Below, one piece after another: positions 1 to 16,869 of a stretch of DNA of 54,711 nucleotides. Source of the stretch: a virus (lineage: Duplodnaviria > Caudoviricetes). Position 1 is the stretch's first letter. Every line of letters begins with the position of its first letter. The notes under the pieces were generated by a model, which was given only the letters and a program-made list of their open reading frames with translations, searched no databases and was not told the DNA's origin. Where the stretch lies: positions 1 to 54,711 of the IMG/VR virus record IMGVR_UViG_3300019742_000004; one strand, 5' to 3'. Made by a program: the position numbers and the translations under genes.

Positions 1-77
1 CAACAGAAATAGGCAAAGACATTTACCGTGTAGATATCAGCGGTAAAATAAATAACTTAAATTACGCACATTATTAA
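1..77 (+). CDS. 3' end of a truncated ORF (TEIGKDIYRVDISGKINNLNYAHY*), possibly a tail-region protein
   Basis: Open frame from the window edge to TAA 75-77. Confidence 0.45.
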   Translation, partial: TEIGKDIYRVDISGKINNLNYAHY

Positions 78-88
78 AATTTATTACT

Positions 89-175
89 ATGCCAATTGTA
101 AAGCCACCAAAAATACCTCCAACAGAGCTAGAGGGAGATGAAGTATCAGATGAAGATAACGTAGATAATGGTTAA
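89..175 (+). CDS. small Pro/acidic peptide MPIVKPPKIPPTELEGDEVSDEDNVDNG
   Basis: Read manually; fills the gap and overlaps the next start; N-terminus resembles MPIIKPTPP at 36575. Confidence 0.45.
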   Translation: MPIVKPPKIPPTELEGDEVSDEDNVDNG

Positions 176-548
176 TTTTATAAAGAAATACTATTTATAT
201 TTAGTGATAGGGCTTTACTTAGCTCTATCATTATTATACATTAATAAAGCTGAGTATAATATATGCTGGTCTGCATTCGGATATCTTACAGATAATATAT
301 TTATAATATTATTAATTATTTATCTTATCCCAAGACTAAAAGACACAAATTTAATGGTGTTTTCGTGCTTTATACCTGCTTATTTTATAATAAATTCAAT
401 TTTGGTGATTATCGGAAGTATAGTATCTAATGATATGAATGAATTTTTTAAATATGGTGATTCTCCAATAACTATTAATATAACAGTTGGAACAATGGTA
501 TTAATATTTATATTGTATCTATTGGGTAAAAAACATAAAATAATATGA
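168..548 (+). CDS. multi-pass membrane protein, lysis-region candidate
   Basis: About 4 hydrophobic segments; coupled to the next two membrane genes. Confidence 0.55.
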   Translation: MVNFIKKYYLYLVIGLYLALSLLYINKAEYNICWSAFGYLTDNIFIILLIIYLIPRLKDTNLMVFSCFIPAYFIINSILVIIGSIVSNDMNEFFKYGDSPITINITVGTMVLIFILYLLGKKHKII

Positions 549-850
549 AAGAATGGGTTAAAAATCTACAATTAAACATGGGTACAATTGTAGTTGTAGC
601 GTTATTATCATTCGTAGCAAGTATTTTTTTATACAACGTATCATCCAGCAACGAAAGAGCTGTTAGGCTGTATCAACAGACACAAGAGGAAATTAAGAAA
701 AAAGTAAGTACAGAAGTGTACGAAGCAAATAGAAGAACACAATCTGTTATAGATAAAACACAGAATGACAAAATACAAGCATTGGAAGATAATTTAAAAG
801 ATGATATTAAAGAGATAAAATTAGGTATGCAAGAATTGAGAGATAAGTAA
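545..850 (+). CDS. single-TM coiled-coil protein (holin/spanin-like candidate)
   Basis: N-terminal TM followed by charged helix; ATGA overlap with previous gene. Confidence 0.5.
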   Translation: MKEWVKNLQLNMGTIVVVALLSFVASIFLYNVSSSNERAVRLYQQTQEEIKKKVSTEVYEANRRTQSVIDKTQNDKIQALEDNLKDDIKEIKLGMQELRDK

Positions 851-1239
851 TGTTTAATATATTTAATAAAGTAAAAGGCGCAGGGATAACGGAAATAATG
901 AAAGGAGCTAAAGAGTTAGCCGATGAATTATTTACCACTAAAGAAGAGAAGCAGCAATTCTTATTAGATGCTTACAAAGAAGTTTCTAAAGATCGTCAAT
1001 CAGCTCGAAATATGTTTATTCACGATAGTTGGTTACAAAAGTCTTTTGCTATTTTATTTCTTGCATGCTGGCTTGTATTAACGTACTTATTATTAAATCA
1101 TTTTGTGGTAGGTAAAGTAGATCTTAAAGAATGGCAAATAGCCTTATTAAGTACTATATACGGAGGTATTAACACGAAATTAAATACTATTATAGATTTT
1201 TTATTTGGAGGTAGCGCGGGAGTTGATAAATCAAAATGA
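850..1239 (+). CDS. putative holin (3TM-holin-like)
   Basis: DELFTTKEEK...DRQSARNM, two TM helices and C-terminal FLFGGS, a pattern seen in phage holin-like proteins. Confidence 0.6.
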   Translation: MFNIFNKVKGAGITEIMKGAKELADELFTTKEEKQQFLLDAYKEVSKDRQSARNMFIHDSWLQKSFAILFLACWLVLTYLLLNHFVVGKVDLKEWQIALLSTIYGGINTKLNTIIDFLFGGSAGVDKSK

Positions 1240-1308
1240 TTTCACTATATTTACACAATCATATCGTAATACGATGTTTAGTTTGTGAAGATTTCATATC
1301 TCTTTACT

Positions 1309-1341
1309 GCCCAGATTCATCACTTCGAATCTGGGTTTCTT
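1309..1341 (+). terminator. intrinsic terminator
   Basis: cccagattc...gaatctggg stem followed by tttctt, downstream of the lysis genes. Confidence 0.55.
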
Positions 1342-1505
1342 ATTTATATTGCTTCTTAATAATAGAATTCTTAATTTCACAACTCAATATTAACTATTAG
1401 ACTAGATCAATAGTATCAACCTAAACAAACAAAAAAGATATGAAGTAGTTAATTAAATGGTTTAAATCGGACTTACCAACCACATAAATGAATTAGAGAT
1501 ACAAA

Positions 1506-1530
1506 GCCGCCAATATAGTGCGGTTTTTTT
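1506..1530 (+). terminator. intrinsic terminator insulating the cassette-array promoter
   Basis: ccgc...gcgg stem then T7. Confidence 0.55.
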
Positions 1531-1538
1531 GTACCCCT

Positions 1539-1643
1539 TATTTATATTCATTCTAAACACTTTTATACTTAGATTTGTGTAAACAAAAAAATAATAGGTA
1601 TGTATAAAAAGCGACGACGCAGGAGGAGAAATGAAGCCATAAC
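1539..1643 (+). repeat. 105-bp promoter/leader unit, copy 1 (inverted copy at 37721-37825)
   Basis: 102/105 identity to the reverse complement of 37721-37825; contains 19-bp operator-like box (1540-1558) and TAGATTTG -7 box (1570-1577); ends at AAC 1641-1643. Confidence 0.9.
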
Positions 1644-1719
1644 GGTACGGTTGTATATTATCGGTTGCTGATGAAGTGACCACATAAGTTGATTAGAATT
1701 ACTAACCGCCCAAACTTAG

Positions 1720-2061
1720 GTGCGTGGGCAAAAACTTTATGAAGCATTAGCATATGCTTATGAATTACTAAAAGAACAATCAGAAACAGGACACTACCCA
1801 GTAAGTGCACTTGCTGAAAATGGGGGTAAAGGTTATGAACCAATTACAAAAGTATTGAAAGAGTGTGAGGGCGAATATTTGAACGAGAGTAGCGGTTTGC
1901 ATTTACAACGTGTTAACGGCTGGCTTGAATTTTACGGAAACGAGCAGTTGTTTAATGACATGGCTAAACTTAATTGCCCTTGCAGATTTGATGATGGTAG
2001 CCAATGTAGATATAATGAAGAACACCCAATGGCAAAGCTAACGCACTTTAAAATAGTGTAG
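1720..2061 (+). CDS. hypothetical protein, cassette 1
   Basis: ORF (GTG start uncertain) reads through GTT 1912 and stops 10 nt before AAC 2071. Confidence 0.6.
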   Translation: MRGQKLYEALAYAYELLKEQSETGHYPVSALAENGGKGYEPITKVLKECEGEYLNESSGLHLQRVNGWLEFYGNEQLFNDMAKLNCPCRFDDGSQCRYNEEHPMAKLTHFKIV

Positions 2062-2130
2062 CTTGCCGTTAACGTGATTGGTATATAAACAAAATTTATT
2101 CACGGCAAATTTGCCACAAAAGATATTAAA

Positions 2131-2424
2131 ATGAAAGAACGTTTAAAATTACTACGTGCGGAGGCAAGCGACCTCCAAGAAAAACTTAGTAACAACAGTA
2201 AAGAACAAACAGAATTGATGATTGCTATTTACAAAGACGATACTAAGCTTGCTGTGGGCGATAAAGTGCTTGTTGACGGCAAAAAGAAAGGTGTAATCGA
2301 AAGCTTTGTCAGAAAATACAGTGAGGTTATGCCTAATGTGCAGTATTACAAGAAAGACGGAACGCTTGGTAAGAGATATGAGCGTGTGTGGGGTTTTCAG
2401 AAAATAGAAAAACTTAGTGAATAA
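2131..2424 (+). CDS. hypothetical protein, cassette 2 (inside the hairpin loop)
   Basis: Enclosed by a perfect 24-bp inverted repeat 2080-2103/2417-2440. Confidence 0.75.
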   Translation: MKERLKLLRAEASDLQEKLSNNSKEQTELMIAIYKDDTKLAVGDKVLVDGKKKGVIESFVRKYSEVMPNVQYYKKDGTLGKRYERVWGFQKIEKLSE

Positions 2425-2581
2425 ATTTTGTTTATATACCTTGTTGTGGTGTCGTTGCTTCTTTTGAAAGCGTGATGACGTTCAATGATTGCATATACTT
2501 ATTTATTATTTGCAATGCACCACAACGACTCGCATATGAGCCGTTTGGATTTAATAGTAAAAATTTCAAAAACATACAATA

Positions 2582-2938
2582 ATGAATGAAGAGAAAAAAG
2601 ATAATAACCGCACCGAAGCCCAAATGACTTATGATGCATTGTTAGCTACCGTTAAGTGCGGTGGGCTTTCAATCGATGAACTAAAAAGACTAAGAAATGC
2701 AGTGGTTGAAAAGGAAACAGAAAACTACCACAGCACAAGGAAGCTTATATATGAAATTGCATTAACTGACGATATGAGCCACTGCTTTAAAAAGCGTGAG
2801 GATGCAATTGAATACTTAACTACCGACCTTGAAGATAACGCAGAAGATTACTTTAACGAAAGTTCGGTTAGATTACGTGCGAGGTGGCTTGATATAGAAA
2901 CCTACAATGATTATAATGACCACTGGCTTGAAGTTTGA
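2582..2938 (+). CDS. hypothetical protein, cassette 3
   Basis: Starts in the loop and reads through GTT 2641. Confidence 0.7.
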   Translation: MNEEKKDNNRTEAQMTYDALLATVKCGGLSIDELKRLRNAVVEKETENYHSTRKLIYEIALTDDMSHCFKKREDAIEYLTTDLEDNAEDYFNESSVRLRARWLDIETYNDYNDHWLEV

Positions 2939-3103
2939 GCGGTGGCAATGGTAGCTAACGAAAAAGTATATGATTTCGAGCCGATAAATGGCACGACCTT
3001 ACGATAACAGATAAAGTAAATTAAAGATTATAAACAAACAAGATAGCACTAACACGGCTTGAATTATATACGGTGTTGTGCATCTTTTAAAAATGCGGAA
3101 ATA

Positions 3104-3310
3104 ATGAACGAAATTTATAGTGTAAAAGACAAATTGCCAGAGGTTGAATGTGGTAGCTACTTAGCTTATGCACCGCAAAGTTTCCCAAAAAATAGCCGAT
3201 GGGTAGTAGCTGAATATTATGATGATTCAAAAGGTTTTTATAGTGAATCAGGTGAGTTTTTTATGGATGACGTTACACATTGGTGTGAACTTCCAAAAGA
3301 ACCGAAATAG
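3104..3310 (+). CDS. DUF551-like phage protein, cassette 4
   Basis: SVKDKLPE...VTHWCELPKEP motif; in-frame ATG 3104 preferred over TTG 3059. Confidence 0.75.
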   Translation: MNEIYSVKDKLPEVECGSYLAYAPQSFPKNSRWVVAEYYDDSKGFYSESGEFFMDDVTHWCELPKEPK

Positions 3311-3451
3311 TAGCATTTTTTATTGTGCACAACGGTGGCAATAAGATTAAGCGTAGCGACCCGTAGGGTTAATTTTATTGCGTGTTGTGTGCTGTATAGC
3401 GACTTATCCCACGAATGATAATTAAATGTACTAATGTAAAAATATTTTAAA

Positions 3452-4348
3452 ATGTGCGATGGCAAAAATGGCTTTGAAAAAGCCAAAAATAAAGACCTTT
3501 TTGGTAATGAAATAATAACTAACCCATTATTGCGAGATAAATTTATTGAGCCACCTTTTTCTATTTTAGATAGTAAAAGTGGAAGTTGGAAAAAAAGGCG
3601 TAATTTATGGAAAAATATAGGCATAAAAAGTGAAGTTGGCAGAGATGTTAAAAGTATTGGATTATCTAAAAGTATATTAAATATTGGTAAAAATCATAAA
3701 GTGCATGAAGGTACTAGTATTTTTGACCCTGCATTGTGTGAAGTGATATATCATTGGTTTATTCCAAAAAATGGTAATATATTAGACCCTTTCGCTGGTG
3801 GTTCTGTACGTGGCATCGTTGCTAATTATTTAGGATATAAATATACAGGCATTGATATAAGGCAAGAACAAATAAATAGCAATAGGGAGCAAGCTATTGA
3901 TATACTTGACATAAATAACCAACCTCAATGGTATGTTGGGGATAGTAACGAAGTATTGAATGAATTTAACACTTCTTTTGATTTTATCTTTAGTTGCCCC
4001 CCTTATGCAGATTTAGAAGTTTACAGCGATTTGCATGGTGATATTTCAAATATGAATTATGTTGAATTTATGAAAGCATATGAAGAAATAATTGCAAAGA
4101 GTTGTAATTTATTAAAAAGCGGTGGTTATGCATGTTTTGTAGTTGGTGAGGTTAGAGATAAAAAAGGTAATTACATAGGATTTGTCCCAGATACAATTAA
4201 TGCATTTAAGAAATGCGGAATGAAATATTATAATGAAGGTATTTACTTGCAAGGATTAGCAGGTGCTTGTATGACCGCAGGGAAGCAAATGGAATCTTCT
4301 AAAAAATTAAGAAAAATACACCAGAACATATTAATATTTAAAAAATAA
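3452..4348 (+). CDS. DNA amino-methyltransferase (N4-C/N6-A), cassette 5
   Basis: SAM-binding LDPFAGGS and catalytic-like SCPPY motifs. Confidence 0.85.
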   Translation: MCDGKNGFEKAKNKDLFGNEIITNPLLRDKFIEPPFSILDSKSGSWKKRRNLWKNIGIKSEVGRDVKSIGLSKSILNIGKNHKVHEGTSIFDPALCEVIYHWFIPKNGNILDPFAGGSVRGIVANYLGYKYTGIDIRQEQINSNREQAIDILDINNQPQWYVGDSNEVLNEFNTSFDFIFSCPPYADLEVYSDLHGDISNMNYVEFMKAYEEIIAKSCNLLKSGGYACFVVGEVRDKKGNYIGFVPDTINAFKKCGMKYYNEGIYLQGLAGACMTAGKQMESSKKLRKIHQNILIFKK

Positions 4349-4352
4349 AATT

Positions 4353-4502
4353 ATGACACGTTTAACAAGATTACAAAAACACGGATGGAATGTAGTTAAT
4401 TATATGAGTGGTAATGGTTGCCAAGCAACCAAAAACAACGGATTAACTAAAATTACAGGGAAAAGCATTACTGATTTGCATAGACAAATATTTTGTTATT
4501 AA
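4353..4502 (+). CDS. small hypothetical protein (49 aa), cassette 5
   Basis: Read manually: MTRLTRLQKHGWNVVNYMSG...HRQIFCY*, 4 nt after the MTase stop. Confidence 0.55.
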   Translation: MTRLTRLQKHGWNVVNYMSGNGCQATKNNGLTKITGKSITDLHRQIFCY

Positions 4503-4626
4503 TGGCTTTTTCAAAGCCAAGAGGGAGGGAAATTTTAAAATATTTTGGGCAATATGGTACAATCTTTAATAAATGTACGGAACTAAGCCATATTGCATAC
4601 AACGTAAATAATAAATACAGTACGAC

Positions 4627-4875
4627 ATGAAAGCAGAATTATTTGATATATTAACGGACGTTGAAAAGGGCAGAATTACCGCCACCGTAGCCACTACAAA
4701 AGTATTGGATTTATTTAGTGTTAGCGGTAGTATTGGTGATATGATCGAGGACAATAGAACTAGATGCCCTAAATGCAAAAGTCCAAACATAGATCTTCCG
4801 CTAAGACTTACAAATTGGAGCAATACAGGCAAAGCAAAATGCCAAGAATGCGGTAATGAGTTTCACGACTTCTAA
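4627..4875 (+). CDS. zinc-ribbon protein, cassette 6
   Basis: CPKC...CQEC; reads through GTT 4720. Confidence 0.7.
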   Translation: MKAELFDILTDVEKGRITATVATTKVLDLFSVSGSIGDMIEDNRTRCPKCKSPNIDLPLRLTNWSNTGKAKCQECGNEFHDF

Positions 4876-4876
4876 T

Positions 4877-4926
4877 ATTACCGCTAACTACCCGATAAGT
4901 ACACATAAACATAATTACCTAACAAC
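4877..4926. repeat. attI-like array-terminal site, copy 1
   Basis: 50-bp perfect direct repeat of 24525-24574; ends 14 nt before the recombinase ATG. Confidence 0.85.
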
Positions 4927-4940
4927 TAGATAAATAAAAC

Positions 4941-5756
4941 ATGAGAAACTCTATACCTATTAGAAATTTAGAGGAATATATGTTTATAAAACAATATTCT
5001 AAAAATACTGTTGATAATTATATATCATGTATAAAAAATGTCTTGAAAAACTCTAACAAAGATGTATACCATTTAACAGTAGATGACTTTAATAATTATA
5101 TTATTAAAAGCAATAAATCATCTAGTTTTAATAACCTAGTTGTTAGTTCAGGTAAACTATTTTTTTATTATGGATTAAAAAGAAAATCAAATAATAAATT
5201 TTTACACAGACCTAAAAAATCTAAAAAAATAATAGAAATTTTAACACAAAAAGAAGTATGGAGTATTATAGATTCTATTAATAACATAAAACAAAAAAGT
5301 ATTATATCTGGTATATATCTTCATGGCTTAAGAATATCAGAGGTTCTGAATTTAAAGTACGAAAACATAGATAGACACAGAAAACTATTGACTATTAGAG
5401 AGGCTAAAGGTAAAAAAGATAGATTAGTCCCTTTAAATAAATTTTGGCTAGAGCACTTAGAAGTATATGCTAAGAAAATGAATCATAAAAAAGGTTATAA
5501 TGAACCAATATTTACTCCTTACTCTTTATCATCTATCAGAAGTACTTTAAAAAAGTACGCTAAAAAGGTAGGAATAAGAAAGAAAATATACCCTCATTTA
5601 CTTAGAGATACTTACGCGAGTCATTTATTACAAAGCGGCTTTGATATTTCGTTAATTCAAGAAATATTAGGTCATTCAAAAATATATACGACAAGGAAAT
5701 ACATACATTTTTCAGCGGTGAATATATCGGCTGTGTGCCTTAAGAAAGTAATTTAA
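4941..5756 (+). CDS. tyrosine recombinase (Xer/integrase family), candidate cassette integrase
   Basis: Complete catalytic set: GLRISE, KGKKDR, HLLR, LGH, TRKY; short SAM-like N-domain YSKNTVDNY. Confidence 0.92.
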   Translation: MRNSIPIRNLEEYMFIKQYSKNTVDNYISCIKNVLKNSNKDVYHLTVDDFNNYIIKSNKSSSFNNLVVSSGKLFFYYGLKRKSNNKFLHRPKKSKKIIEILTQKEVWSIIDSINNIKQKSIISGIYLHGLRISEVLNLKYENIDRHRKLLTIREAKGKKDRLVPLNKFWLEHLEVYAKKMNHKKGYNEPIFTPYSLSSIRSTLKKYAKKVGIRKKIYPHLLRDTYASHLLQSGFDISLIQEILGHSKIYTTRKYIHFSAVNISAVCLKKVI

Positions 5757-5941
5757 ATTCATTCTAAACTAAAATAGAACTAATATTGTGACATGAAAAA
5801 ATACAGAAGAAAATACCCGAATGGGGTACTAGGCTCCCAATTCTACTCTAAAGAAGAATTAAGCAAGTTTAAAATTTGTTTTGGAGCTGATAGCTTAATA
5901 GAATACGATAAAGGGGATAAGACAGGTAAAATATACAAAGT

Positions 5942-6286
5942 ATGGGAACTATGCGACGTAAAATAAAAGAAGTATTAAAAGCCGCTATCGAAGGATTAGA
6001 CTTTAATAGCGTGCAAATATTAAACTACGCTACTTTCATCTTATCAATAAATATAGATAAAGTAGAATTTACATACACTCGATCTCACACGACTAAGCAC
6101 TTATCGCTAGACTTAACAGGCGACATACAAATAAATAAATTCGAAGGCTACGCGAATGTAAATGTAGACGATTTAGAGTTATTTGTTTGGGATACTGACG
6201 GAGACCCAGAGCCTCACGACTTCGAGATGGTTGATGTATGTGAATTACTAACAGATTATATTAATGATAACTTAGAATCATTCTAA
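5942..6286 (+). CDS. hypothetical protein
   Basis: ORF in the + strand gene run. Confidence 0.6.
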   Translation: MGTMRRKIKEVLKAAIEGLDFNSVQILNYATFILSINIDKVEFTYTRSHTTKHLSLDLTGDIQINKFEGYANVNVDDLELFVWDTDGDPEPHDFEMVDVCELLTDYINDNLESF

Positions 6287-6347
6287 ACTACCTATAAGCT
6301 ATGTAATGTAACTTATAGGTAGTATATTTAAACTAAAATAATGAGAT

Positions 6348-6845
6348 ATGAGTAAAACACACTACAGAAAAGTATTTAAATCAGATCATCTAGGACAAGC
6401 TGACTTAGAAGATATGATAGAAGAAGGTAAAAGATTAGTATTTACCATAAAAGAAGTAAGGCAAGAAATAGGCGTTTCGGTTGCTGGCAGAACAGGCAAT
6501 CATAATATAGCTTATTTCGTTGAACCTATCAAACCATTAGTGTTAAATGCTACTAATAGTAAAACAGTTAGAGGATTTAACCAGAACAGCCCGTTTGTTG
6601 AGGATTGGGGTAATACATTAATTGAACTATACATTGATACTAATGTTAAAATGAAAGGCGAAATAGTTGGAGGCGTGAGGATAAAACCAAAACAACCAGC
6701 GATAACTAAACCTGAAATCACACCAGATAGTGCAAAATGGAAAGACGCTGTAGCTTATTACGAAAAACATAAATGCTTTACAGGTGTGCTAAAACATTAT
6801 ACCCTATCCGAGGCTAACCAAAAAAAGATAAAAGATGAAGCTTAG
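6348..6845 (+). CDS. putative ssDNA-annealing/recombination partner protein
   Basis: Overlaps YqaJ gene start; function inferred from position only. Confidence 0.5.
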   Translation: MSKTHYRKVFKSDHLGQADLEDMIEEGKRLVFTIKEVRQEIGVSVAGRTGNHNIAYFVEPIKPLVLNATNSKTVRGFNQNSPFVEDWGNTLIELYIDTNVKMKGEIVGGVRIKPKQPAITKPEITPDSAKWKDAVAYYEKHKCFTGVLKHYTLSEANQKKIKDEA

Positions 6846-7488
6846 ATACGATATAGCTCAGAACTCTGAAGAATGGTACGATATAAAGCTGGGTAAATTC
6901 TCAGCTTCTATTGCTGGTGACTTGCTAATGGATAAAAAAAACAAAGGTTATTCAAATCTTATAAAAAAAATATCTGAAGAGCGAATGACGGGAGAAGCTT
7001 GTGAAAGTAATAGCTTTAAAGGTAATGCATTCACAGAAAGGGGTCATGAATTTGAACCAATAGCCAGAGAAGATTATGAAATAAGAACATTTAACGAAGT
7101 TAAAATAATAGGCGTTATTGAGCGAGATGATTGGTGTTTGTGTTCTCCAGATGGTTTGATAGACGATAACGGATTACACCAAATTAAATGCCCTATATTT
7201 AATACACAAAGCGAGTATCTATATACATATAATAAATACAAGGATACATTAACTGCGAATGAATTAATGTGTAAAATATCATCTACATATTATAAACAAA
7301 TGCAGTTTGAATTATTTGTATCAGAAAGAGAATACAATATATTTACTTCGTATCACCCTAAATTAGCCGCAATAGATATTATAATAACTAGAGATGAAGA
7401 TATGTTAAGGGCTATTGAATATAGATTGATAGAGGCAAAAGAAGAAGTAGTAAAAAGAATTGAATTATTAAAATCTTATAAAAACTAA
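6835..7488 (+). CDS. YqaJ/lambda-exonuclease family recombinase
   Basis: QNSEEW, RGHEFEPIAR, CSPDGL, QIKCP, YYKQMQ motifs. Confidence 0.9.
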   Translation: MKLRYDIAQNSEEWYDIKLGKFSASIAGDLLMDKKNKGYSNLIKKISEERMTGEACESNSFKGNAFTERGHEFEPIAREDYEIRTFNEVKIIGVIERDDWCLCSPDGLIDDNGLHQIKCPIFNTQSEYLYTYNKYKDTLTANELMCKISSTYYKQMQFELFVSEREYNIFTSYHPKLAAIDIIITRDEDMLRAIEYRLIEAKEEVVKRIELLKSYKN

Positions 7489-7491
7489 AAC

Positions 7492-7857
7492 ATGAAATTC
7501 AAAGTATCATTTAAAAAAGAAGTAGAAGGTAAAATAAAGGCTGTATGGGTATTAATAAGCTCCGATACTTACGGACATGCCGAAGAACAGTTTTTCAATT
7601 ACTGCGAAGAACACGAAATACCTATGTCGTTAGGTGAGTATAAAATAGTACCCACGAAAATAACAGATATTATAGTAAATAAAGAGTGTAGCAACTGGTA
7701 TTTAATCACCTACGTAGACACATGTGACGACAAAGAAGTATCATTTCAAGCGTTAATCGAAAGTGACAACGATATAAACGCCCGCAAGGAGATTGAAGAA
7801 ATAGTAAACGTTAAGAGTACGGTATCAACAAAATATATAGATGTAATATGTCAGTAA
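7492..7857 (+). CDS. hypothetical protein (DUF4494-like)
   Basis: Resembles Bacteroidota DUF4494 layout; weak. Confidence 0.45.
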   Translation: MKFKVSFKKEVEGKIKAVWVLISSDTYGHAEEQFFNYCEEHEIPMSLGEYKIVPTKITDIIVNKECSNWYLITYVDTCDDKEVSFQALIESDNDINARKEIEEIVNVKSTVSTKYIDVICQ

Positions 7858-8255
7858 ACAAAGTAATTTTAGTGGGTCGAGTTGGTAAAGATCCTGAAAT
7901 AAAGTATTTAGACGGAGGTACTGCGGTTGCAAACTTTCCTCTAGCAACAAGTGAAAGCTACAAAGATAAGAGCGGCGAAAAAAAAGAAGTAACTGAGTGG
8001 CATAATATATCTATTTGGAGAAGTCTAGCCGAAGTTGTAGAAAAGTATGTTAAAAAAGGTAGTCTTCTATATTTAGAAGGTAAAATTAAAACAGAAACAT
8101 ACGAAAAGAACGGCGAAAAAAGATATTCAACAAAAATAGTCTGCAATCAAATGCAAATGCTAGGAGGCAACCAGACCAAGGAGCAAAAGCCAGCGGATAG
8201 TTTTGATAACGAACCTACGCCGCCGCCAGACGACATAAATGAATTTCCATTCTAA
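7848..8255 (+). CDS. ssb: single-stranded DNA-binding protein
   Basis: VNKVILVGRVGKDPE, TEWH, acidic C-terminus ending FPF. Confidence 0.95.
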   Translation: MSVNKVILVGRVGKDPEIKYLDGGTAVANFPLATSESYKDKSGEKKEVTEWHNISIWRSLAEVVEKYVKKGSLLYLEGKIKTETYEKNGEKRYSTKIVCNQMQMLGGNQTKEQKPADSFDNEPTPPPDDINEFPF

Positions 8256-8324
8256 AACGGTAAAATAAATTATTTTAATTTCTTCCTTTTTAGTAATTTT
8301 GGAGGGAATTAATATTAATAGCCT

Positions 8325-8828
8325 ATGGATACATTAATTTGCACTTTATGTGCGATAGAAAAGCCATTTAATGAGTTCTACAAGAACAAAGGAATGCCTT
8401 CTGGTTACGCTAACCAATGTAAAGAATGCGTAAAAGCAAGGTCTAAAAAAAGAGAGGAGGTGTTAAGGCAAAATCCTGAATGGGTAGAGAAGGAAAAGGC
8501 TAGAGCAAGGGATAAATACAGAAGACTAGGATATAACCATAAGCAAAAAGAATGGGACAAAAAAAGGCCATGGACTAAAATATATGTTTACAAAAACATA
8601 AATAGAGACCTTAAAAGAAAAGGTTTGTTGAATGATTCCCAAACTGCTCACCACTGGAACTATAATCTCCTTAAAGATGTATTTATTTTAAATAAAAAAG
8701 TTCACAGAAAACTACATAGGTTTATCAGGATAGACGAAGAGACGTTATGTTTTAGGACAATAGAAGGTAATTTATTAGACACTAGAGATAAGCACCAAAA
8801 TTATATTAATATAATAGAAAAATTATAA
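8325..8828 (+). CDS. HNH endonuclease-like protein
   Basis: CTLC...CKEC zinc motif, AHHWNY, HRKLH. Confidence 0.7.
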   Translation: MDTLICTLCAIEKPFNEFYKNKGMPSGYANQCKECVKARSKKREEVLRQNPEWVEKEKARARDKYRRLGYNHKQKEWDKKRPWTKIYVYKNINRDLKRKGLLNDSQTAHHWNYNLLKDVFILNKKVHRKLHRFIRIDEETLCFRTIEGNLLDTRDKHQNYINIIEKL

Positions 8829-8883
8829 ACTTAATTTTTTAATTAACTTATAAACAAAAATAAAGCTAGGCGGGACTAGCGGA

Positions 8884-8917
8884 AAGCGGCGGGTTTATAA
8901 CTTTGCCGCTTTTTTTT
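8884..8917 (+). terminator. intrinsic terminator
   Basis: aagcggc...gccgctt stem followed by a T-tract. Confidence 0.65.
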
Positions 8918-8979
8918 GTTTAATGTTTTGTAATTTCATAAAAAGTATTAACTTTGTGAATATATCAATACACAAAAAT

Positions 8980-9684
8980 ATGAAGCATACATTAATGGAA
9001 AGGCCTTTAATGGGCAGTATGATAAGGCAAAGGGTAGATAATGAAATGCTATGCCTTACTGACTTATCAAGAATCTATGAAGCTGAAAGGGTTAAAAATG
9101 GATGGGTTGAAAAAAGATTAGACTGGTTTTTTAATAACGATTCTGAACAAGAGTATATTATAGAATTACTTGATTTACAGGGATGTTTCATAAACGTGAA
9201 AAAATTAACGTTTATGGATCAAGTTAAAAATCAAGGTCTTGTTAAATCTTTGAAATCAATAGGCCAATATAAGACAGGCGGTAGAGGTGAGAACAAAGCA
9301 GTATATTGTAATCCTTATATTTTTGTTGCTGTAGCTCAATGGTTGAATCCTAAATTTAGAGCGAAAGTTACAATGTGGGTAACCGATCAGCTTATTCTTA
9401 ATAGAATTGAAGCAGGAGCAAATTACAATACTCTTTGTGATTCTATAAAAGAAAAGATTCTTCCGCAAAGCAGTGATAATTCAAAGAAATTTATATTTTC
9501 TAACTTCGCTAAACTTATTAATAACCATGTATTCGGTAAGCATGACAGCGATTTAAGACACATAGCCAGTAAAGAACAGTTGACTAAACTAAGAGACACA
9601 GAAATAGAACTAACTACACTTATAAATGTAGGGTTTATTTCATCTTATCAAGAGGCTAAAGAATATTTAAAAAATAAGATATGA
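8980..9684 (+). CDS. KilA-N domain DNA-binding protein
   Basis: IRQRVD...LTDL, GRGENKAVYCNPYIFVAVAQWLNPKF; ATG 8980 follows a TAACTTTG box. Confidence 0.85.
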   Translation: MKHTLMERPLMGSMIRQRVDNEMLCLTDLSRIYEAERVKNGWVEKRLDWFFNNDSEQEYIIELLDLQGCFINVKKLTFMDQVKNQGLVKSLKSIGQYKTGGRGENKAVYCNPYIFVAVAQWLNPKFRAKVTMWVTDQLILNRIEAGANYNTLCDSIKEKILPQSSDNSKKFIFSNFAKLINNHVFGKHDSDLRHIASKEQLTKLRDTEIELTTLINVGFISSYQEAKEYLKNKI

Positions 9685-10070
9685 AAAAAATAATCATTAC
9701 TCATTTATGGGTTATAGGTTTTGGTTGGGAAAACACAATTTACTCAACAGAAGATTTCAATAATGTGATGGAACTAAATAAAATAGATAATAAATTTTAC
9801 GAGTTCGAAGCAACACAAGGAGGTAAATCCTATTTATTAAAAGGTTATTATGTTAAAGATGATGAAATAGTAGATACTCAGTATGAATATACTAAAGAGT
9901 TAAATAACGAAAGAATATGCGACCAATGTGGATCAGAAATGAAAGAATTAAAAAAACCGCGTAAAAAGTATGGCAAGCATAATACTATATACAAATGTAC
10001 TTATTGCGATCATACACATAGAAAGAGAACACAAAACGAAATACTAAGAGATAAAGGATTAAGAGAATGA
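9681..10070 (+). CDS. zinc-finger hypothetical protein
   Basis: CDQC...CTYC. Confidence 0.55.
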   Translation: MKKIIITHLWVIGFGWENTIYSTEDFNNVMELNKIDNKFYEFEATQGGKSYLLKGYYVKDDEIVDTQYEYTKELNNERICDQCGSEMKELKKPRKKYGKHNTIYKCTYCDHTHRKRTQNEILRDKGLRE

Positions 10071-10251
10071 ACAAACTAAAACAGCAATTCAAGTCACTAA
10101 CCGACAACGAGAAAAAGGTTATACGCAAATATTTAGACAAAGAAGTTTATAACGAGTTAAATAGTTAATTATGGAAGAAATTATACAACAAGCTCAGGCA
10201 GATAACAGTAAATTACTAGGTGTAAGATATAGTGATAAATTACCTTTTTAA

Positions 10252-10671
10252 ATGGCATTCTACGACTTAAAAGAAGACAGCAAGGTAGAACAAATAACTA
10301 ACTACCTTGCTAAACTTATATCAGATAAATCCACGGTAGAACTCAGGAGGGTAAAGCCTAAAAGAACTAATAGTCAAAATGCGTATTTACATGTACTTTT
10401 TACGCTATGGGGACTAGAACACGGCTATACTGTTGAAGAAGCAAAAACAAACGTAAAAAGACACTTTCACAATATATTTGTTTACGAGAAGAAAGGTCAT
10501 AAATACCTAGGCCGTACAAGGGATATGGACACAAAACAAATGACTGATTTTATAGACCAATTTCGTAATTGGTCAGCTTCAGAAGGGTATTATTTACCTA
10601 GTCCAGACGAATACAAAGGCAAGTACGCCTACTATCAGAATATAATTGAAATTAATAAGGAGTTTTTATAA
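10252..10671 (+). CDS. NinB-like recombination protein
   Basis: KRTNSQNAYLH...TRDMDTKQMTDFID...LPSP. Confidence 0.7.
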   Translation: MAFYDLKEDSKVEQITNYLAKLISDKSTVELRRVKPKRTNSQNAYLHVLFTLWGLEHGYTVEEAKTNVKRHFHNIFVYEKKGHKYLGRTRDMDTKQMTDFIDQFRNWSASEGYYLPSPDEYKGKYAYYQNIIEINKEFL

Positions 10672-11030
10672 TGAAATTTAAAACAGTTAGTGAGTTATTT
10701 AAACATATTAGCGAAACAAGGGAAATGAAGAGCCAGTTATCGGGAGATCCGTTATTAAATACTAATCATAGTTTACATCATTGGCAATATTTACATATCC
10801 TATCTAAAAATTCGCATACGTTATGGAAAACTGATGAAAGAAACGTAATTCTTGGTACAGTAGAAGAGCACAATAATCAAGAAAGTAACGAAACATTTAA
10901 GCTTATACAGGCAGCAGCAAAAAGGCGTTATATGATAGAAAACGAGGGTAAAAATTTCCCTTTAGACCAGCCTTTTGATTGGTTATTTATGGATAGTGAG
11001 GAAATCAAAACACTTAAAGCTTATGAGTAA
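10671..11030 (+). CDS. HNH/NinG-like nuclease-fold protein
   Basis: HILSK...DERNVILG...EH pattern. Confidence 0.45.
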   Translation: MKFKTVSELFKHISETREMKSQLSGDPLLNTNHSLHHWQYLHILSKNSHTLWKTDERNVILGTVEEHNNQESNETFKLIQAAAKRRYMIENEGKNFPLDQPFDWLFMDSEEIKTLKAYE

Positions 11031-11298
11031 AAGATTCGCTAAAGTAGACAGCAACCAGCCGCAAATAGTCAAGGAACTACGAGAAAAAGGATATACAGTT
11101 AAACATCTACACGAGCTTAAAAACTTCGTTGATATAACTGTAGGACACAAAGGAGTTAATTATCTATTCGAGATAAAACCCGATAAGTCAAAAAAACTAA
11201 CCCCCGGGGAACAAAAGTTTTTCGATGAATGGACAGGCCAAAGAGATGTGATATACTGCGCTCAAGACGCTATTGATATAATAGAAGGGAATAAATAA
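11023..11298 (+). CDS. VRR-NUC-like nuclease / Holliday junction resolvase
   Basis: AKVDSNQPQIV...D...FEIK...LTPGEQKFFDEW. Confidence 0.8.
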   Translation: MSKRFAKVDSNQPQIVKELREKGYTVKHLHELKNFVDITVGHKGVNYLFEIKPDKSKKLTPGEQKFFDEWTGQRDVIYCAQDAIDIIEGNK

Positions 11299-11351
11299 TT
11301 ACTTAGAACCATTATAAATAAGGACATAATGGTTTTATTTTTCTCTAAATA

Positions 11352-11383
11352 GTTGCAATGTACGCAACGGTTAACTATATTTG
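11352..11383 (+). promoter_or_regulatory. Bacteroidota-type promoter overlapped by GTTGC-N7-GCAAC palindrome
   Basis: gttgcaatgtacgcaac 11352-11368; TATATTTG 11376-11383. Confidence 0.6.
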
Positions 11384-11418
11384 TAATGTAATAATTCATA
11401 AACGAAAAATATAAAGAG

Positions 11419-11592
11419 ATGAGAGCAACAGTATCATATTCAGAAAGCGGAAAAATTCAAGTTTTTACAACTAAAGAATTAAAAGGAAGAGGAGTTAGAA
11501 ACATTGGTTTAAAATCTAACGGTGAAACTCGTTACTTACTAACACAAAAGGCTTACGATAAAATACAACACCTTTGCGAATGGATTGGATAA
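11419..11592 (+). CDS. small hypothetical protein (57 aa)
   Basis: Read manually, MRATVSYSESGK...LCEWIG*, directly behind the promoter. Confidence 0.6.
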   Translation: MRATVSYSESGKIQVFTTKELKGRGVRNIGLKSNGETRYLLTQKAYDKIQHLCEWIG

Positions 11593-11839
11593 AATTAAAA
11601 GAGAAGTTCCCGAATAGCTATAAGTAAATTCGGGAATTTTCTGAAAAAACAAATACAATAGGAAGAACGTGTCTTTATAGGTTTTTAAAATCAAAAGGTT
11701 ATCCTGATAGTTTTATTTTAACAAAATATCTGAAAGAGTACGAGAATGATAATACTAAATAAATACACGCCAGAAGCATACGGAAACCTTAAAACACTAT
11801 GCGATGCTTTAAAAGTAAGTTACTACACTTATAAAGCAT

Positions 11840-12226
11840 AACGTAGATGCGGTATGAGTAGGCCGCTTTGTAGACTGCTCAAAATTTAGTAATAGCCTTG
11901 ATAGCGGCTTACTTATGACCGCTTGTTAGGCACAGTACGATACTGAAAATGGAAAATTACATAGTGACACTAAAGAGAAGAACAACTCTAAAATGCTTTA
12001 GGAATAGGATTTTAAAAATGAGATTCGGGTTAAATAAAATCGAACATAGGAACTTTAGTAGACTTGATAACGGTTTGAAAAGAGGACACTTAAAATCCGT
12101 TGGTTCAAGAGAGCTATACAGGATATTGAATAGGTACATAAATATGAGTAACGAAGAGTTGTTTTGTAGCGATATATTTCTACTTGAGATAAAGTAGTAT
12201 TGTGTCTAACTAGTCGATAAAAACAC
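11840..12226 (+). mobile_element. single-cassette satellite array 2 with degenerate attI-like end
   Basis: AAC 11840; arms gcggtatgagtaggccgct / agcggcttacttatgaccgc; GTTaggcacagtac 11925 pairs with gtattgtgtctAAC ending 12210; then tagtcgataaaaacac. Confidence 0.8.
11949..12197 (+). CDS. hypothetical basic protein, cassette cargo
   Basis: ORF fits exactly between GTT 11925 and AAC 12208. Confidence 0.6.
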   Translation: MENYIVTLKRRTTLKCFRNRILKMRFGLNKIEHRNFSRLDNGLKRGHLKSVGSRELYRILNRYINMSNEELFCSDIFLLEIK

Positions 12227-12276
12227 CTTTACCACCAGCTAACCCTTTAACTTACAAGCAACAATACAGTATAAAT

Positions 12277-12456
12277 ATGAAACTAAAAGACAAGATAATT
12301 AAAAGCGGTCTTAGTAACTATTACATAGCACAGCACTCAGGTATAAACAAATCAACAGTAGGTCGTATAAGATCAGGTATAATAAGATACCCGAGAGATG
12401 AAACAGCCGAAGCTATAGAAAAGGCTATTAAGAATCATTCTAAACAGCAAAAATAA
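12277..12456 (+). CDS. XRE/Cro-like helix-turn-helix protein (59 aa)
   Basis: Read manually: GLSNYYIAQHSGINKSTVGRIRSG...PRDETAEAI. Confidence 0.75.
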   Translation: MKLKDKIIKSGLSNYYIAQHSGINKSTVGRIRSGIIRYPRDETAEAIEKAIKNHSKQQK

Positions 12457-12466
12457 ACGCAAATTA

Positions 12467-12498
12467 GTTGCAAGGCTCGCAACTAGGTATTATATTTA
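12467..12498 (+). promoter_or_regulatory. promoter with GTTGC-N7-GCAAC palindrome
   Basis: gttgcaaggctcgcaac 12467-12483 followed by tatattta. Confidence 0.55.
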
Positions 12499-12527
12499 CA
12501 GTATAGAAATTCAAAAAAAACAAAGAG

Positions 12528-12821
12528 ATGAGACTAAATACAAAAAACAAAAGCACAAGGTTCATGAATGGCAACATTGATGTCGATGGCGTTATTTTAG
12601 ATATTCTTATAGAAGAACATGGTCACGCCGCTGTATACTCATCTAATATTGATTTTAGTGAAGCAATTTACTCAAATGGGTTTATTGAAGCTATAGAGGA
12701 TGATAAAATACCTATGTTAAAATTATATCCAACTGATTCACATAGATTTTATAATGAATTAAGTGAATATCATCATATTATTGTGAATGACGAATGTTAT
12801 AATGTATATTTTAAAAACTAA
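12528..12821 (+). CDS. hypothetical protein
   Basis: ORF behind the promoter. Confidence 0.6.
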   Translation: MRLNTKNKSTRFMNGNIDVDGVILDILIEEHGHAAVYSSNIDFSEAIYSNGFIEAIEDDKIPMLKLYPTDSHRFYNELSEYHHIIVNDECYNVYFKN

Positions 12822-12831
12822 ACATAAGATT

Positions 12832-13167
12832 ATGAAAACTTCAACAAAAAATTACGAACATGAATTAAAATGGTTTAACAATCTAACATCTAAAAACAAC
12901 GAATCAGTATCACATGTTTATTATATACAAGATATCCAGACAATAGAGATGCTTAACAAGTATTTTGAAGATTCAGGAGGAGAGCAGAAGTCTGCTATAT
13001 GGGTAGATATAGACGGCCTTATAACTAAGGCTAGTATTGATTGCACTAAAGAAGGTTGTAATTGTTCAGGATCATGGAGTGAAGAGTACTGTGAGCATGA
13101 AGAGGAAGATTTTTATTTCAATTACGAAGATTTATTTAATATTCTTAGTTTACGATATAAACATTAG
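12832..13167 (+). CDS. hypothetical protein
   Basis: ORF; non-overlapping ATG 12832 chosen. Confidence 0.6.
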   Translation: MKTSTKNYEHELKWFNNLTSKNNESVSHVYYIQDIQTIEMLNKYFEDSGGEQKSAIWVDIDGLITKASIDCTKEGCNCSGSWSEEYCEHEEEDFYFNYEDLFNILSLRYKH

Positions 13168-13230
13168 TCACTCCAGCCCCGCTCTGAAACAAAAGCGGGG
13201 AATTGGTGGTAAAACTAAAAAACTTTTGAT

Positions 13231-13515
13231 ATGAAAGATTTATATTATTTCGAAAAAGAAAAAACTTTAATTTGGATAACTGGATACGGTAGTTTTAATA
13301 ATTTAAAAGATAGATTCGAACACTACAGTGAAAAAGCAGACATCCTCAGTAAATTAATAAACAGAGATACTAATGATGTATGCCATTTGTTTATAGAAAA
13401 TTCATCTAGATTCGAAAGAATGAATTGCTTTTATCTACAAGGTGTAACAGAAAAACCAGAAGAAGCAATGGAAATGTGTGAAGATTGGACTGTAAGTAGT
13501 TGGATAAGGAGGTAG
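13231..13515 (+). CDS. hypothetical protein
   Basis: ORF with GATATG start context. Confidence 0.6.
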   Translation: MKDLYYFEKEKTLIWITGYGSFNNLKDRFEHYSEKADILSKLINRDTNDVCHLFIENSSRFERMNCFYLQGVTEKPEEAMEMCEDWTVSSWIRR

Positions 13516-13518
13516 CTT

Positions 13519-13773
13519 ATGAAGCTTAAAATAATACAAGTATGTCAAAAGTTCCAGATTCAGGAACGAATACCCTGCACTAACGTATTCCTAAAAGCAA
13601 ATATCAGCGGTGTAATAAACTCATTTTCTAATATACCAGCCGCTTTAAGAATAATAAAGAAAAAGTACGGATACAAAGGAGAAGAACTAAAAATAATTAT
13701 TGATTATGGAGTTAATAAAGATAGGATTTTCGCAGGAGAGACTAATAAAACTATTCCACGCCAGAAAAGATAG
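13519..13773 (+). CDS. hypothetical protein
   Basis: ORF in tight operon. Confidence 0.5.
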   Translation: MKLKIIQVCQKFQIQERIPCTNVFLKANISGVINSFSNIPAALRIIKKKYGYKGEELKIIIDYGVNKDRIFAGETNKTIPRQKR

Positions 13774-13982
13774 TGAAATAAAACTAAACGTAACTAAAGC
13801 CGATATAATAAATGCAAAGTATGGTTTTAGCAAAATATCTAAAAACTGAAATTATGAAATATTCATTAACAGATTAGCTTTTATAAGCCAGAAACTTATA
13901 CAGTTATGTTATATAAAAGGAAAAGATCTTTCCGAAAGCGAATACAGAACACTAGAAGAGAACAACTATTTAATTTAATGTT

Positions 13983-14177
13983 ATGGAAAAAATAACTCTA
14001 AAAGAAGTAAACGCAATTAATGAGATTTTATACCAACAAGTAGAAGCTTTACAGAAATACGAAGGTGACGACATCACAACCTCATGTAACGCTATATTAA
14101 GCGCAATTCAGCGTAACATCAAGTATTTTACCGATCAAAATCTTAAGAAGGATGGGAATAAAACAAGTAATTCTTGA
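13983..14177 (+). CDS. hypothetical protein
   Basis: ORF in operon. Confidence 0.5.
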   Translation: MEKITLKEVNAINEILYQQVEALQKYEGDDITTSCNAILSAIQRNIKYFTDQNLKKDGNKTSNS

Positions 14178-14352
14178 TTACGTATCAAGTAAACAAAACA
14201 AAGAACACGGAGTAAGTAGAACTAGGATATTTAACTATTTTAATAATATTTACACCCGTGACGAAATATCACAATCAATAAGCGAGTTACAAACCGAAAA
14301 ATTAATGAGATATGAAAACCCAACAGGACAAATCTACACGACTGACATGTAG
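14152..14352 (+). CDS. small winged-helix-like protein
   Basis: ILDYV...GVSR...EISQSISEL...GQIYT pattern. Confidence 0.45.
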   Translation: MGIKQVILDYVSSKQNKEHGVSRTRIFNYFNNIYTRDEISQSISELQTEKLMRYENPTGQIYTTDM

Positions 14353-15761: not shown

Positions 15762-15884
15762 TTTATATTTGTTCTAAACAACTAAATCACGATATTCGTA
15801 ATGAATTAGAAACCCAGATGTGAAATATAATTTTAACATTATAGATTCAGTTTAAGACTTCTGGGTTTCTTTAAAAACTAAGAT

Positions 15885-16844: not shown

Positions 16845-16869
16845 CTTGGTATTTTTTAGTAATCAGCGC

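Follow-up and report, generated by a model that had tools for sequence, protein, structure and literature searches.

What are the imperfect hairpins, each framed by AAC and GTT, that lie between the small genes of a phage genome fragment? The fragment is the 54,711-base IMG/VR record IMGVR_UViG_3300019742_000004, which was analysed over its full length and is referred to here as the window. It is estimated to be 69% complete, has a G+C content of about 33% and carries nearly all of its long open reading frames (ORFs) on the + strand. It encodes a large terminase, a portal protein, a major head protein, a DnaB-like helicase and a RecE-like exonuclease (6835–7488) and is therefore from a tailed phage. 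The region is present in contigs of three microbial-mat DNA runs, and no run of RNA was among those listed as containing it. An earlier note on this DNA, made from the letters alone, had described the hairpins as attC-like, with a fixed asymmetry and with mismatches that are almost all G-T on the + strand, and had proposed that this strand is the folded substrate of recombination.

Integrons are the textbook case of recombination through folded single-stranded DNA. They are defined by the integrase IntI and are found mainly in bacterial chromosomes, plasmids and transposons. The answer that we favour, at a probability of roughly 60%, is that the hairpins serve as recombination sites for a gene-cassette system of integron-like design, in phages whose hosts are probably Bacteroidota. 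Named relatives of a recombinase encoded in the window come from Bacteroidota, and the same family of sites is found in cultured Polaribacter phages. Both the attC-like reading and the choice of the + strand are supported by four independent computational lines, namely covariation in the hairpin helix, strand-specific wobble pairs at fixed places, complementarity between the two ends of each cassette, and homology between related phages that breaks at the 5' AAC of the + strand.

Anatomy and strand asymmetry of the sites

Each site reads, on the coding strand, AAC, 4–6 nt, stem, loop, stem, 2–3 nt and GTT. The window contains nine clear sites and one degenerate one, all on the coding strand, which were located by a scanner with manual additions and fall into three arrays: S0 to S5 at 1641–4722 (array 1), S6 at 11840–11927 (array 2) and S7 to S9 at 23223–24367 (array 3). 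Site coordinates run from the start of AAC to the end of GTT. The interval first noticed, 2071–4722, extends from the AAC of S1 through the GTT of S5, and the arms that had been quoted as examples were all recovered, at 2957–3077 and 3331–3386 and, in array 3, at 24256 and 23754.

The scanner looked for AAC, a 4–7-nt spacer, a bulge-tolerant stem with a loop of up to 480 nt, a 2–4-nt spacer and GTT. On the + strand of the window it found six sites with a score of at least 33 and five with a score of at least 36. In 16 dinucleotide shuffles, 0–2 sites reached 33, and only one of the 16 gave a site, a single one, at 36 or above. Forcing AAC and GTT to pair in a scan brought up ordinary terminator hairpins in overwhelming number, and this version was dropped in favour of the anchored-stem one. 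Intrinsic terminators were themselves considered as an identity for the sites and rejected, as the T-rich run lies about 9–16 nt beyond GTT and not at the stem.

S6 and S7 have the ends AACGTAGATGCGGTATG ... ATGACCGCTTGTTA in common and belong to a group of sites termed class A. The 17-mer at their 5' end was found in 10 viral contigs, and in 9 of the 10 the same architecture is present with different inner stems. When ten class A sites were aligned, pairing in the inner helix (L helix) came to 98.3%, and 9 of its 18 pairs had compensatory changes. This covariation was reached by none of 500 shuffles, and pairing with shifted partners was 35–52%. A covariance model, which had been suggested as a check, was built on the class A sites and finds further array sites in the same contigs. 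Its 39 hits are mostly on the strand of the recruiting site; the exceptions are three on the other strand, two of which overlie a stronger hit at the same place. A regular alternation of sites and ORFs was also seen with the scanner, for example in contig L008.

The geometry was examined in a curated set taken from the window, from G001, G002, G005, L008, L011, L012, L013, L015, L032, L034, L042 and L043 (handles used in this work), and from P12002L and P12002S, two cultured Polaribacter phages that both came from South Korean seawater. Several sites in this set are near-copies of one another, and the counts are thus not independent. The asymmetric spacing described previously holds in the set, the 5' spacer measuring 4–6 nt in 73 of 80 sites and the 3' spacer 2–3 nt in 71 of 80, although these ranges were partly imposed by a scanner that admitted only 4–7 and 2–4 nt. 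Likewise, AAC and GTT are present in 60/60 curated sites by construction, but nothing in the selection required the wider conserved motifs T-AAC-G and T-GTT-A. AAC is followed by G in 58/60 and GTT is preceded by T in 53/60, which makes one further G.T pair possible beside the AAC/GTT pairs. Bulges are not one-sided, with 24 bulge columns on the 3' arm and 27 on the 5' arm among 80 sites; class A sites have one bulged G on the 3' arm. The L helix is 17–24 bp long, and the loop, of 8 to about 370 nt, may contain the start of a gene or an entire gene.

Rfam 15 had no hit at the gathering score in the whole window, and at E<=1 it had none in L008 4000–12883 and one irrelevant hit, to a small nucleolar RNA, in window 1400–5200. 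A blastn search of deposited phages with a class A site returned chance hits only. When one genome per species was searched (185,579 species), the class A pattern was found once, in L032, a 2.3-kb contig of a Treponemataceae metagenome-assembled genome (MAG). This contig is probably a misbinned phage fragment, because it carries two sites with matching boxes of the kind described below for cassette ends. In L008, L009, L011 and L007, many sites have a near-constant length of about 124 nt (121–126) and share loose loop motifs (ATTACGAAGCAC ... CTATCAA ...), and are reminiscent of the uniform sites of the Vibrio cholerae repeat (VCR) type, the attC sites of chromosomal integrons.

The preponderance of G-T mismatches that had been reported from the window proved to be a property of the family. 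After the arms were re-aligned with a scoring equal for G.T and A.C, there were 116 G.T against 14 A.C pairs in 60 sites (binomial p 3.6e-21). In 80 sites, G on the 5' arm faced T on the 3' arm 148 times, compared with 12 T.G and 15 A.C pairs, and the G.T pairs were concentrated 12–15 and 17–20 nt past AAC, often as TATG opposite TATA. Both strands were also folded, as had been proposed. With DNA parameters, the + strand was the stabler in 49 of 60 sites, with a mean folding energy of -13.5 against -11.6 kcal/mol (Wilcoxon p 3e-8), the initial choice of sites having used a score that favours G.T on the scanned strand. Wobbles of fixed place and fixed orientation look like a built-in strand mark, since drift in a neutral helix is not expected to fix both.

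The folding strand is also the mRNA strand, and the caveat attached to the first description stands, in that a role in RNA is possible as an addition. As an alternative to recombination sites, the hairpins and the helices formed by cassette ends would be RNA elements that act in a polycistronic early mRNA, through RNase III-like processing, stability or translation control, and gene exchange would be ordinary recombination between phages that survives only at module borders. We consider this explanation improbable. It would be in keeping with a folding strand that is always coding, with a site polarity that follows the genes and with wobbles compatible with G.U pairing, and start codons are found within the loops of S2, S5 and S9. 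However, the wobbles are at two fixed distances rather than scattered, the 5' arm supplies the G in 148 of the 160 G.T/T.G pairs, and the sites have no match in Rfam.

Cassette ends and breakpoints between phages

The bases after the GTT of a site (R' box) were compared with the bases before the next AAC (R'' box) over 10 nt, counting Watson-Crick pairs. The R' of one site and the R'' of the following site form at least 7 of 10 pairs in 37 of 59 cases, with a mean of 6.7. When R' was compared with the flank of the AAC of its own site, this level was reached in 3 of 80 (mean 3.9), and among 6191 other pairings in 3.1% (mean 3.5; Mann-Whitney p 3e-12). Low values between consecutive sites mostly reflect sites missed by the scanner, as was revealed by searching for the best downstream R''. 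In the window, 12 of 13 positions match from S7 to S8 and 11 of 13 from S6 to the end of its array. The R' of S0, GTTAACGGCTGGC, matches the R'' of S1, GCTTGCCGTTAAC; the R' of S2, GTTAGCTACCGTT, matches the next R'' at 12 of 13 positions, as does the R' of S5, GTTAGCGGTAGTA, with the R'' at the end of array 1, TATTACCGCTAAC.

The complementarity often extends to 15–16 nt. At position 11 of the boxes, in 37 cassettes, the pair is G.T in 25 and Watson-Crick in only 2. Complementary cassette ends are the classic integron signature, first used to locate the crossover of integron cassettes, and would be expected if a cassette went through a circular stage that brings its two ends together. To judge by how the boxes are arranged, L helices and same-cassette R helices would also be compatible side by side in a linear transcript, which is a point in favour of RNA elements.

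The two Polaribacter phages P12002L and P12002S allow the borders of the exchanged units to be compared directly. Their sites are on the minus strand, co-oriented with the early genes, and the blocks of homology between the two genomes start or end at the AACs of sites, at reverse-strand positions 8981, 9446, 11425, 16410 and 17377. P12002S contains a 914-nt unit that is absent from P12002L, bounded as AAC|...AAC| and flanked by sequences that are 99.7% and 98.6% identical between the phages. In order, the unit has a spacer, a hairpin and an R' box, then P12002S_0038, which is a methyltransferase gene, and finally an R'' box. It thus includes the hairpin in front of the gene, from which it follows that a hairpin belongs to the gene downstream of it and that crossing over takes place at the 5' AAC on the coding strand. 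The comparison places the crossover at the AAC of the folded strand, with the triplet as its limit of resolution. A reading of the R boxes as the terminal inverted repeats of a miniature inverted-repeat transposable element (MITE) was rejected on the same evidence, as the P12002S unit has a hairpin site and AAC borders, and no target duplication.

A second pair gave the same type of junction. L015 and L012 are 100% identical over 762 nt and unrelated right after AACGT. Contig L028 of G003, which is 73.6 kb long, starts exactly at the AAC of a site that is internal to the array of L011 (4509), and the near-identical but shorter L011 extends upstream of this start with four more cassettes. This assembly break may reflect heterogeneity of cassettes in the sample. 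In one of the sequencing runs (X1), a 7294-nt contig matches the window only at 1539–1643, with three differences, and its end coincides with the final base of the S0 AAC; a variant in which different DNA follows this AAC may be its source, which is suggestive only. One contig of another run (X2) joins 1915 to 11840 and so connects the GTT end of S0 with the S6 AAC. The shorter side of this joint is 43 letters and the joint is ambiguous by a base, and it was not counted. The joints 4353 to 6046 and 4354 to 19630, which have sides of 21–22 letters and are not at sites, were also set aside.

Exact AAC breakpoints that recur in independent phage pairs, with only about 5 nt shared, argue against ordinary exchange between phages carrying RNA elements. 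They could in principle arise with no recombinase at all. In that case the hairpins would stall replication or be cut by a structure-specific nuclease, and joining would follow by template switching or by single-strand annealing at TAACG microhomology, performed by the phage's own RecE-like exonuclease and annealing proteins. The breakpoints are at the hairpin base, a RecE-like exonuclease is encoded in the window and NinG and HNH proteins in P12002L, and the process would be workable in phages without a tyrosine recombinase. We nevertheless regard this scheme as very unlikely, as the cassette-specific complementarity of R' and R'', the fixed wobbles and the half-sites beside a recombinase gene, described next, would all be unaccounted for.

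Array ends, the recombinase and comparison with integrons

Every array ends in an R'' box followed by AAC and a repeated sequence that has no 3' arm, forming a hairpin-less half-site. In the window, the half-site of array 1 is at 4876–4926 on the + strand and consists of the R'' box, AAC at 4886–4888 and then TACCCGATAAGTACAC. That of array 3, at 24524–24574 (+), is a copy of it, with AAC at 24534 followed by TACCCGATAAGTACAC; 50 nt (4877–4926) are identical to 24525–24574. Array 2 ends at 12198–12227 (+) in R'' TATTGTGTCTAAC, AAC at 12208 and then TAGTCGATAAAAACAC, which resembles the sequence after the terminal AAC of array 1. The three array ends of G002 each contain AAC ATAAAATAGAGCGCACGTCC with minor variation. 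In P12002L and P12002S the array ends in AAC AACGGATAAAAC, and a conserved backbone of 5 kb begins at that AAC; P12002L has a second copy of the terminal sequence, of 68 nt. The 24-mer of the terminal half-site had no exact match among viral contigs. These terminal half-sites are read as candidate attI-like sites.

A gene for a Xer-like tyrosine recombinase of 271 aa (4941–5756, +), with the domains PF00589 (Phage_integrase) and PF13495 (SAM_4), has its start codon 55 nt past the terminal AAC of array 1. The protein is Xer-like in fold family only. Its best NCBIfam match is XerA_Arch with 181.5 bits, below the cut-off of 220, while XerD gave 138.5 against 329.6 and XerC 135.9 against 335. Matches to two integron integrase profiles were far below their cut-offs, with protein residues 8–180 aligned to positions 3–180 of TIGR02249 and residues 201–264 to positions 259–322 of PRK15417; about 78 profile positions here face about 20 residues of the recombinase, and the additional domain specific to IntI is not matched. 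The nearest solved structures are those of the XerA type (4a8e and 5hxy), followed by IntI4 (2a3v) and XerD. A single-sequence search of viral contigs returned nothing, and alignment-based searches were needed. About 35 close homologues of 255–277 aa, with 45–61% identity, were found in metagenomes, on contigs of up to phage size.

Sites were present within 3 kb upstream at all 6 evaluable loci of recombinase relatives with a full-length match and at least 31% identity. For tyrosine recombinases that are more distant, the figure was 5 of 71, and two of these five loci are G+C-rich (0.55–0.57), a composition that raises the score. In ten loci, namely the window, G005, L033, L034, L039 to L043 and the cultured Polaribacter phage Leef_1, an array-ending AAC was found about 40–70 nt before the recombinase start in 10 of 10, as judged by eye and without a control. 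Leef_1 has arrays, a terminal half-site and the recombinase together. The specific association of one recombinase family with array ends is not what RNA elements would lead one to expect.

The resemblance to integrons was examined feature by feature. According to Nivina 2016 (PMC5027507), integron sites cross over at the 5' AAC on the bottom strand, which is the one that folds and recombines, and the phage system has its crossover at the equivalent place. In both, AAC and GTT surround an imperfect hairpin of variable length of which one strand folds well, the ends of a cassette are complementary to each other, arrays consist mostly of one-gene cassettes, and a recombinase gene is beside a hairpin-less site at one array end. 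Both also include arrays without a recombinase, which in bacteria are known as attC-site clusters without integron integrases (CALINs), as set out in the consulted sections of Cury et al. 2016 (PMC4889954).

The differences are also considerable. The phage recombinase lacks the domain specific to IntI, and its gene is downstream of the cassettes and in the same direction, unlike in integrons. An attC site is downstream of its gene and recombines through the non-coding strand, whereas in the phages the site precedes its gene and it is the coding strand that folds. The unpaired central spacer of attC is 5–6 nt on each arm, compared with 2–3 nt for the 3' spacer of the phage sites. Where attC has extrahelical bases, the phage sites have a fixed pair of G.T wobbles spaced about 5 nt apart, and the R boxes are 13–16 nt instead of 7. 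Unlike those of attC, the loops of phage sites can hold whole genes, and the carriers are phages. We therefore call the system integron-like rather than an integron, as it has the cassette logic and crossover position of integrons but not the IntI domain or several of the features of attC.

A cassette comprises, 5' to 3' on the coding strand, AAC, a spacer, the imperfect hairpin, a second spacer, GTT with an R' box of about 10 nt, the gene body and R'', up to the next AAC. In the mechanism that we favour, it would be excised between two AACs and circularised, and R'' and R' would pair into a helix of 13–16 bp. The folded strand would then mimic the core site of a tyrosine recombinase, with one arm, an unpaired central region and a second arm. 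The enzyme would be a tyrosine recombinase, in the window the 271-aa Xer-like protein, and would cut the folded coding strand at its 5' AAC and exchange strands with the AAC of another site or of an array-ending half-site. Replication would then resolve the junction, as it does in integrons. Two to three fixed G.T wobbles with G on the 5' side, together with the unequal spacers, let only the coding strand fold well, and would thereby have the role of the extrahelical bases of attC. Arrays without a recombinase would be the counterpart of CALINs, either served in trans or inactive. What we infer is where exactly cleavage occurs, that there is a circular intermediate, which enzyme acts, and that the substrate is folded single-stranded DNA rather than a cruciform or duplex, the last with indirect support from the strand bias.

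A bolder version of this reading is that the phages carry a second kind of integron, with a small Xer-like recombinase that has no IntI domain, a strand choice based on wobbles and spacers, and the site before the gene, where it may perhaps bring expression signals of its own. This is put forward tentatively, at somewhat less than even odds.

The sites may instead be ordinary attC sites, with CALINs captured from bacterial integrons or served by the IntI of the host, and with a phage Xer-like gene that is an unrelated lysogeny integrase. The conserved AAC and GTT, the imperfect hairpin and the cassette logic would all be explained. Qi et al. 2023 (PMC9892861) propose such an origin or use for the P12002L sites. 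Their screen of 10,705 phage genomes, run with IntegronFinder and with HattCI and Infernal, gave 17 CALINs according to the portions of the article used here. One of these is in P12002L and consists of two predicted attC sites, said to be divergent, and two methyltransferase genes, and the sites are interpreted there as parts of bacterial integrons. The same portions describe how IntI1 recombined one of the two HattCI/Infernal sites, P12002L_attC2, with attI1, through the bottom strand only. Half of bacterial CALINs are in genomes without IntI, as given in the consulted part of PMC4889954.

We still judge ordinary attC sites to be an unlikely explanation. The class A pattern was found only once in the 185,579 one-per-species genomes, on the short MAG contig with two sites, and the geometry differs, with the short 3' spacer, no consistent extrahelical bases, the long R boxes and the site before the gene. 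In addition, the sole recombinase family tied to array ends does not have the IntI domain. The success of the IntI1 assay on single-stranded DNA of a predicted P12002L site, as presented in the sections of PMC9892861 cited above, also speaks against an explanation by RNA. RNA elements alone leave the exact DNA breakpoints, the placement of the recombinase and the terminal half-sites unexplained, but a role in RNA and recombination are compatible and could coexist.

Several observations weigh against an integron-like system. In every array the strand that folds is also the strand of the mRNA, G.U wobbles are natural in RNA, and the polarity of the sites flips with that of the genes inside G001 and G002. 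Sites like S1 and S8, in which the arms enclose whole genes, are without parallel in attC. Identity between S6 and a site in L015 is 96.8%, with flanks that are unrelated and a homology that stops 8 nt past GTT, and the arms of S8 are 90–95% identical to those of a site in G002, while the gene in the loop and both R boxes differ. A single crossover at AAC does not explain either case of sharing. In the extra P12002S unit, R' is complementary to the R'' lying upstream and not to that of the unit itself. By conjecture, these misfits could be explained by occasional use of the other strand, with a crossover at GTT, or by homologous exchange between paralogous cassettes.

The link to an enzyme is also incomplete. 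A search for PF00589 that was positive in 14 of 14 control genomes gave no hit in the array-bearing G001 (100% complete), G002 (100%) and G003 (92%), and the annotation tables of P12002L and P12002S list no integrase. The existence of arrays without any recombinase would suit RNA elements, and means that the link to the enzyme is not obligatory in cis. In Leef_1, the recombinase is annotated as a lysogeny integrase and taken as a sign of a temperate lifestyle in the relevant part of Bartlau 2021 (PMC8776804), and it may have that role; neither 'hairpin' nor 'palindrom' occurs in the text of PMC8776804 that was available. Lastly, the window region is represented by assembled contigs only, without reads showing excision or circles.

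Other systems in which repeated elements bound or carry phage and plasmid genes were also compared. CTX-type phages integrate through a folded single-stranded attP that is used by XerC/XerD of the host. As in the phage sites described here, a hairpin in single-stranded DNA mimics a Xer core with an unpaired centre and a Xer-type recombinase is involved, but there is one site per genome, the whole phage is integrated and the enzyme is host XerCD, whereas here many sites bound cassettes. Promoter early stem-loops (PeSLs) are promoter-terminator motifs exchanged by homologous recombination. In the PeSL cassettes of T4-type phages, repeated stem-loops likewise flank small accessory genes at spots of insertion, deletion or replacement, going by excerpts of PMC2839356 and PMC4122927. 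Here, in contrast, about 5 nt are shared at a junction and each cassette has its own complementary ends. The pdif modules of Acinetobacter plasmids (PMC7399989) are likewise gene modules bounded by Xer-type sites, but these are duplex XerC/XerD sites of 28 bp that have no hairpins and are not in phages.

We list nine co-oriented sites in P12002L and six further ones in P12002S, and the two P12002L sites of Qi et al. may or may not be among the nine. The text of that article in hand (PMC9892861) does not contain 'Xer', and the sections consulted make no mention of a dedicated recombinase, of rules for R boxes or wobbles, of the site-before-gene order or of a comparison of P12002L with P12002S. 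Among the papers listed in full-text searches of one library, none gave another description of such a phage system.

If the bolder reading, a second kind of integron, is true, folded-strand cassette capture arose more than once or predates IntI, and phages that are probably of Flavobacteriia exchange accessory genes, methyltransferases included, in units of one gene. A cassette system of integron logic that is carried by phages and run by a plain Xer-like enzyme would bear on the origin of integrons from Xer recombinases, on the turnover of phage 'hyperplastic' regions one gene at a time, and on the spread of counter-defence genes, such as orphan methyltransferases, among phages. With two sites reported in P12002L against the nine listed here, attC finders tuned to IntI appear to catch a small part of such arrays. 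The system can be tested directly, because three cultured Polaribacter phages (P12002L, P12002S and Leef_1) carry it.

Cassettes of the window and neighbouring features

All features of the three arrays are on the + strand. Array 1 opens with S0 (1641–1914), a degenerate site with a stem score of 19 in which the 3' arm and GTT are good and the 5' arm has decayed. Its loop contains the start of an ORF at 1720–2061, and a site arm present in L015 and L012 shares 85% identity with its 3' arm. S1 (2071–2445) has perfect 24-bp arms (2080–2103 and 2417–2440) with no wobble, which enclose a complete ORF at 2131–2424. The cassette body that follows (2446–2523, or 84 nt at 2443–2526 when the flanking GTT and AAC are counted) has no ORF, and its ends, GTTGTGGTG and CACCACAAC, are complementary over 9 nt.

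S2 (2524–2643) has a bulged G on the 3' arm, and its loop holds the start codon of an ORF at 2582–2938 that encodes 118 aa with no family match. S3 (2957–3077), the first example quoted in the earlier note, precedes an ORF of the DUF551 family (3104–3310; PF04448, E 5.9e-7), and a DUF551 gene is also present in the array of Leef_1. The second example, S4 (3331–3386), is short at 56 nt. It is followed by a gene for a DNA methyltransferase of the N6_N4_Mtase family (3452–4348; PF01555, E 6.5e-13; phrog_498). S5 (4601–4722) has a weak stem with a score of 24, and the ORF that starts in its loop (4627–4875) is zinc-ribbon-like.

S6 (11840–11927), of class A and with the shared ends given above, heads the one-cassette array 2, which contains an ORF at 11949–12197. 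Array 3 is opened by the class A site S7 (23223–23316). The 19-bp arms of S8 (23746–24171) surround an acyl-carrier-protein-like ORF (23853–24119; PF00550, E 2.4e-8), and the loop of S9 (24248–24367), found by the class A model with E 7e-7, holds the start of a Cys-rich ORF (24308–24535). The cassette proteins of the window had no relatives in nine related records, and the same cassette in two contexts is thus not demonstrable for the window. A G+C-rich hairpin at 23192–23225 (GCCCCTCTC...GGGAGGGG) is directly before the AAC of S7, with GTT and AAC abutting as GTTAAC, and may be a terminator or a minimal site. S1 is likewise preceded by GTTAAC.

No tRNA or transfer-messenger RNA was found in the window, and a blastn search of deposited phages with window 1–8000 matched fragments of methyltransferase and single-stranded DNA-binding protein (SSB) genes only. 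A recombination module at 6348–8255 comprises a phrog_21613 protein, the RecE-like exonuclease and an SSB-like stretch, of which 7853–7969 resembles the SSB gene of a Pseudoalteromonas phage; the module may supply single-stranded DNA. A methyltransferase gene that belongs to the backbone (14692–15483; phrog_3820, E 8e-94) is separate from the cassette methyltransferase at 3452–4348. The palindrome TAGTTGC-N7-GCAAC(TA) is present in two copies, at 11350–11368 and 12465–12483, in A/T-rich intergenic DNA. Each copy is directly 5' of a small ORF (11419–11592 and 12528–12821), and the pair look like candidate operator sites of a phage repressor. Two ORFs of 51 aa are 62% identical, one in array 3 (23592–23747) and one far from any array (32019–32174), and may represent a cassette gene that was duplicated into the backbone, or the reverse.

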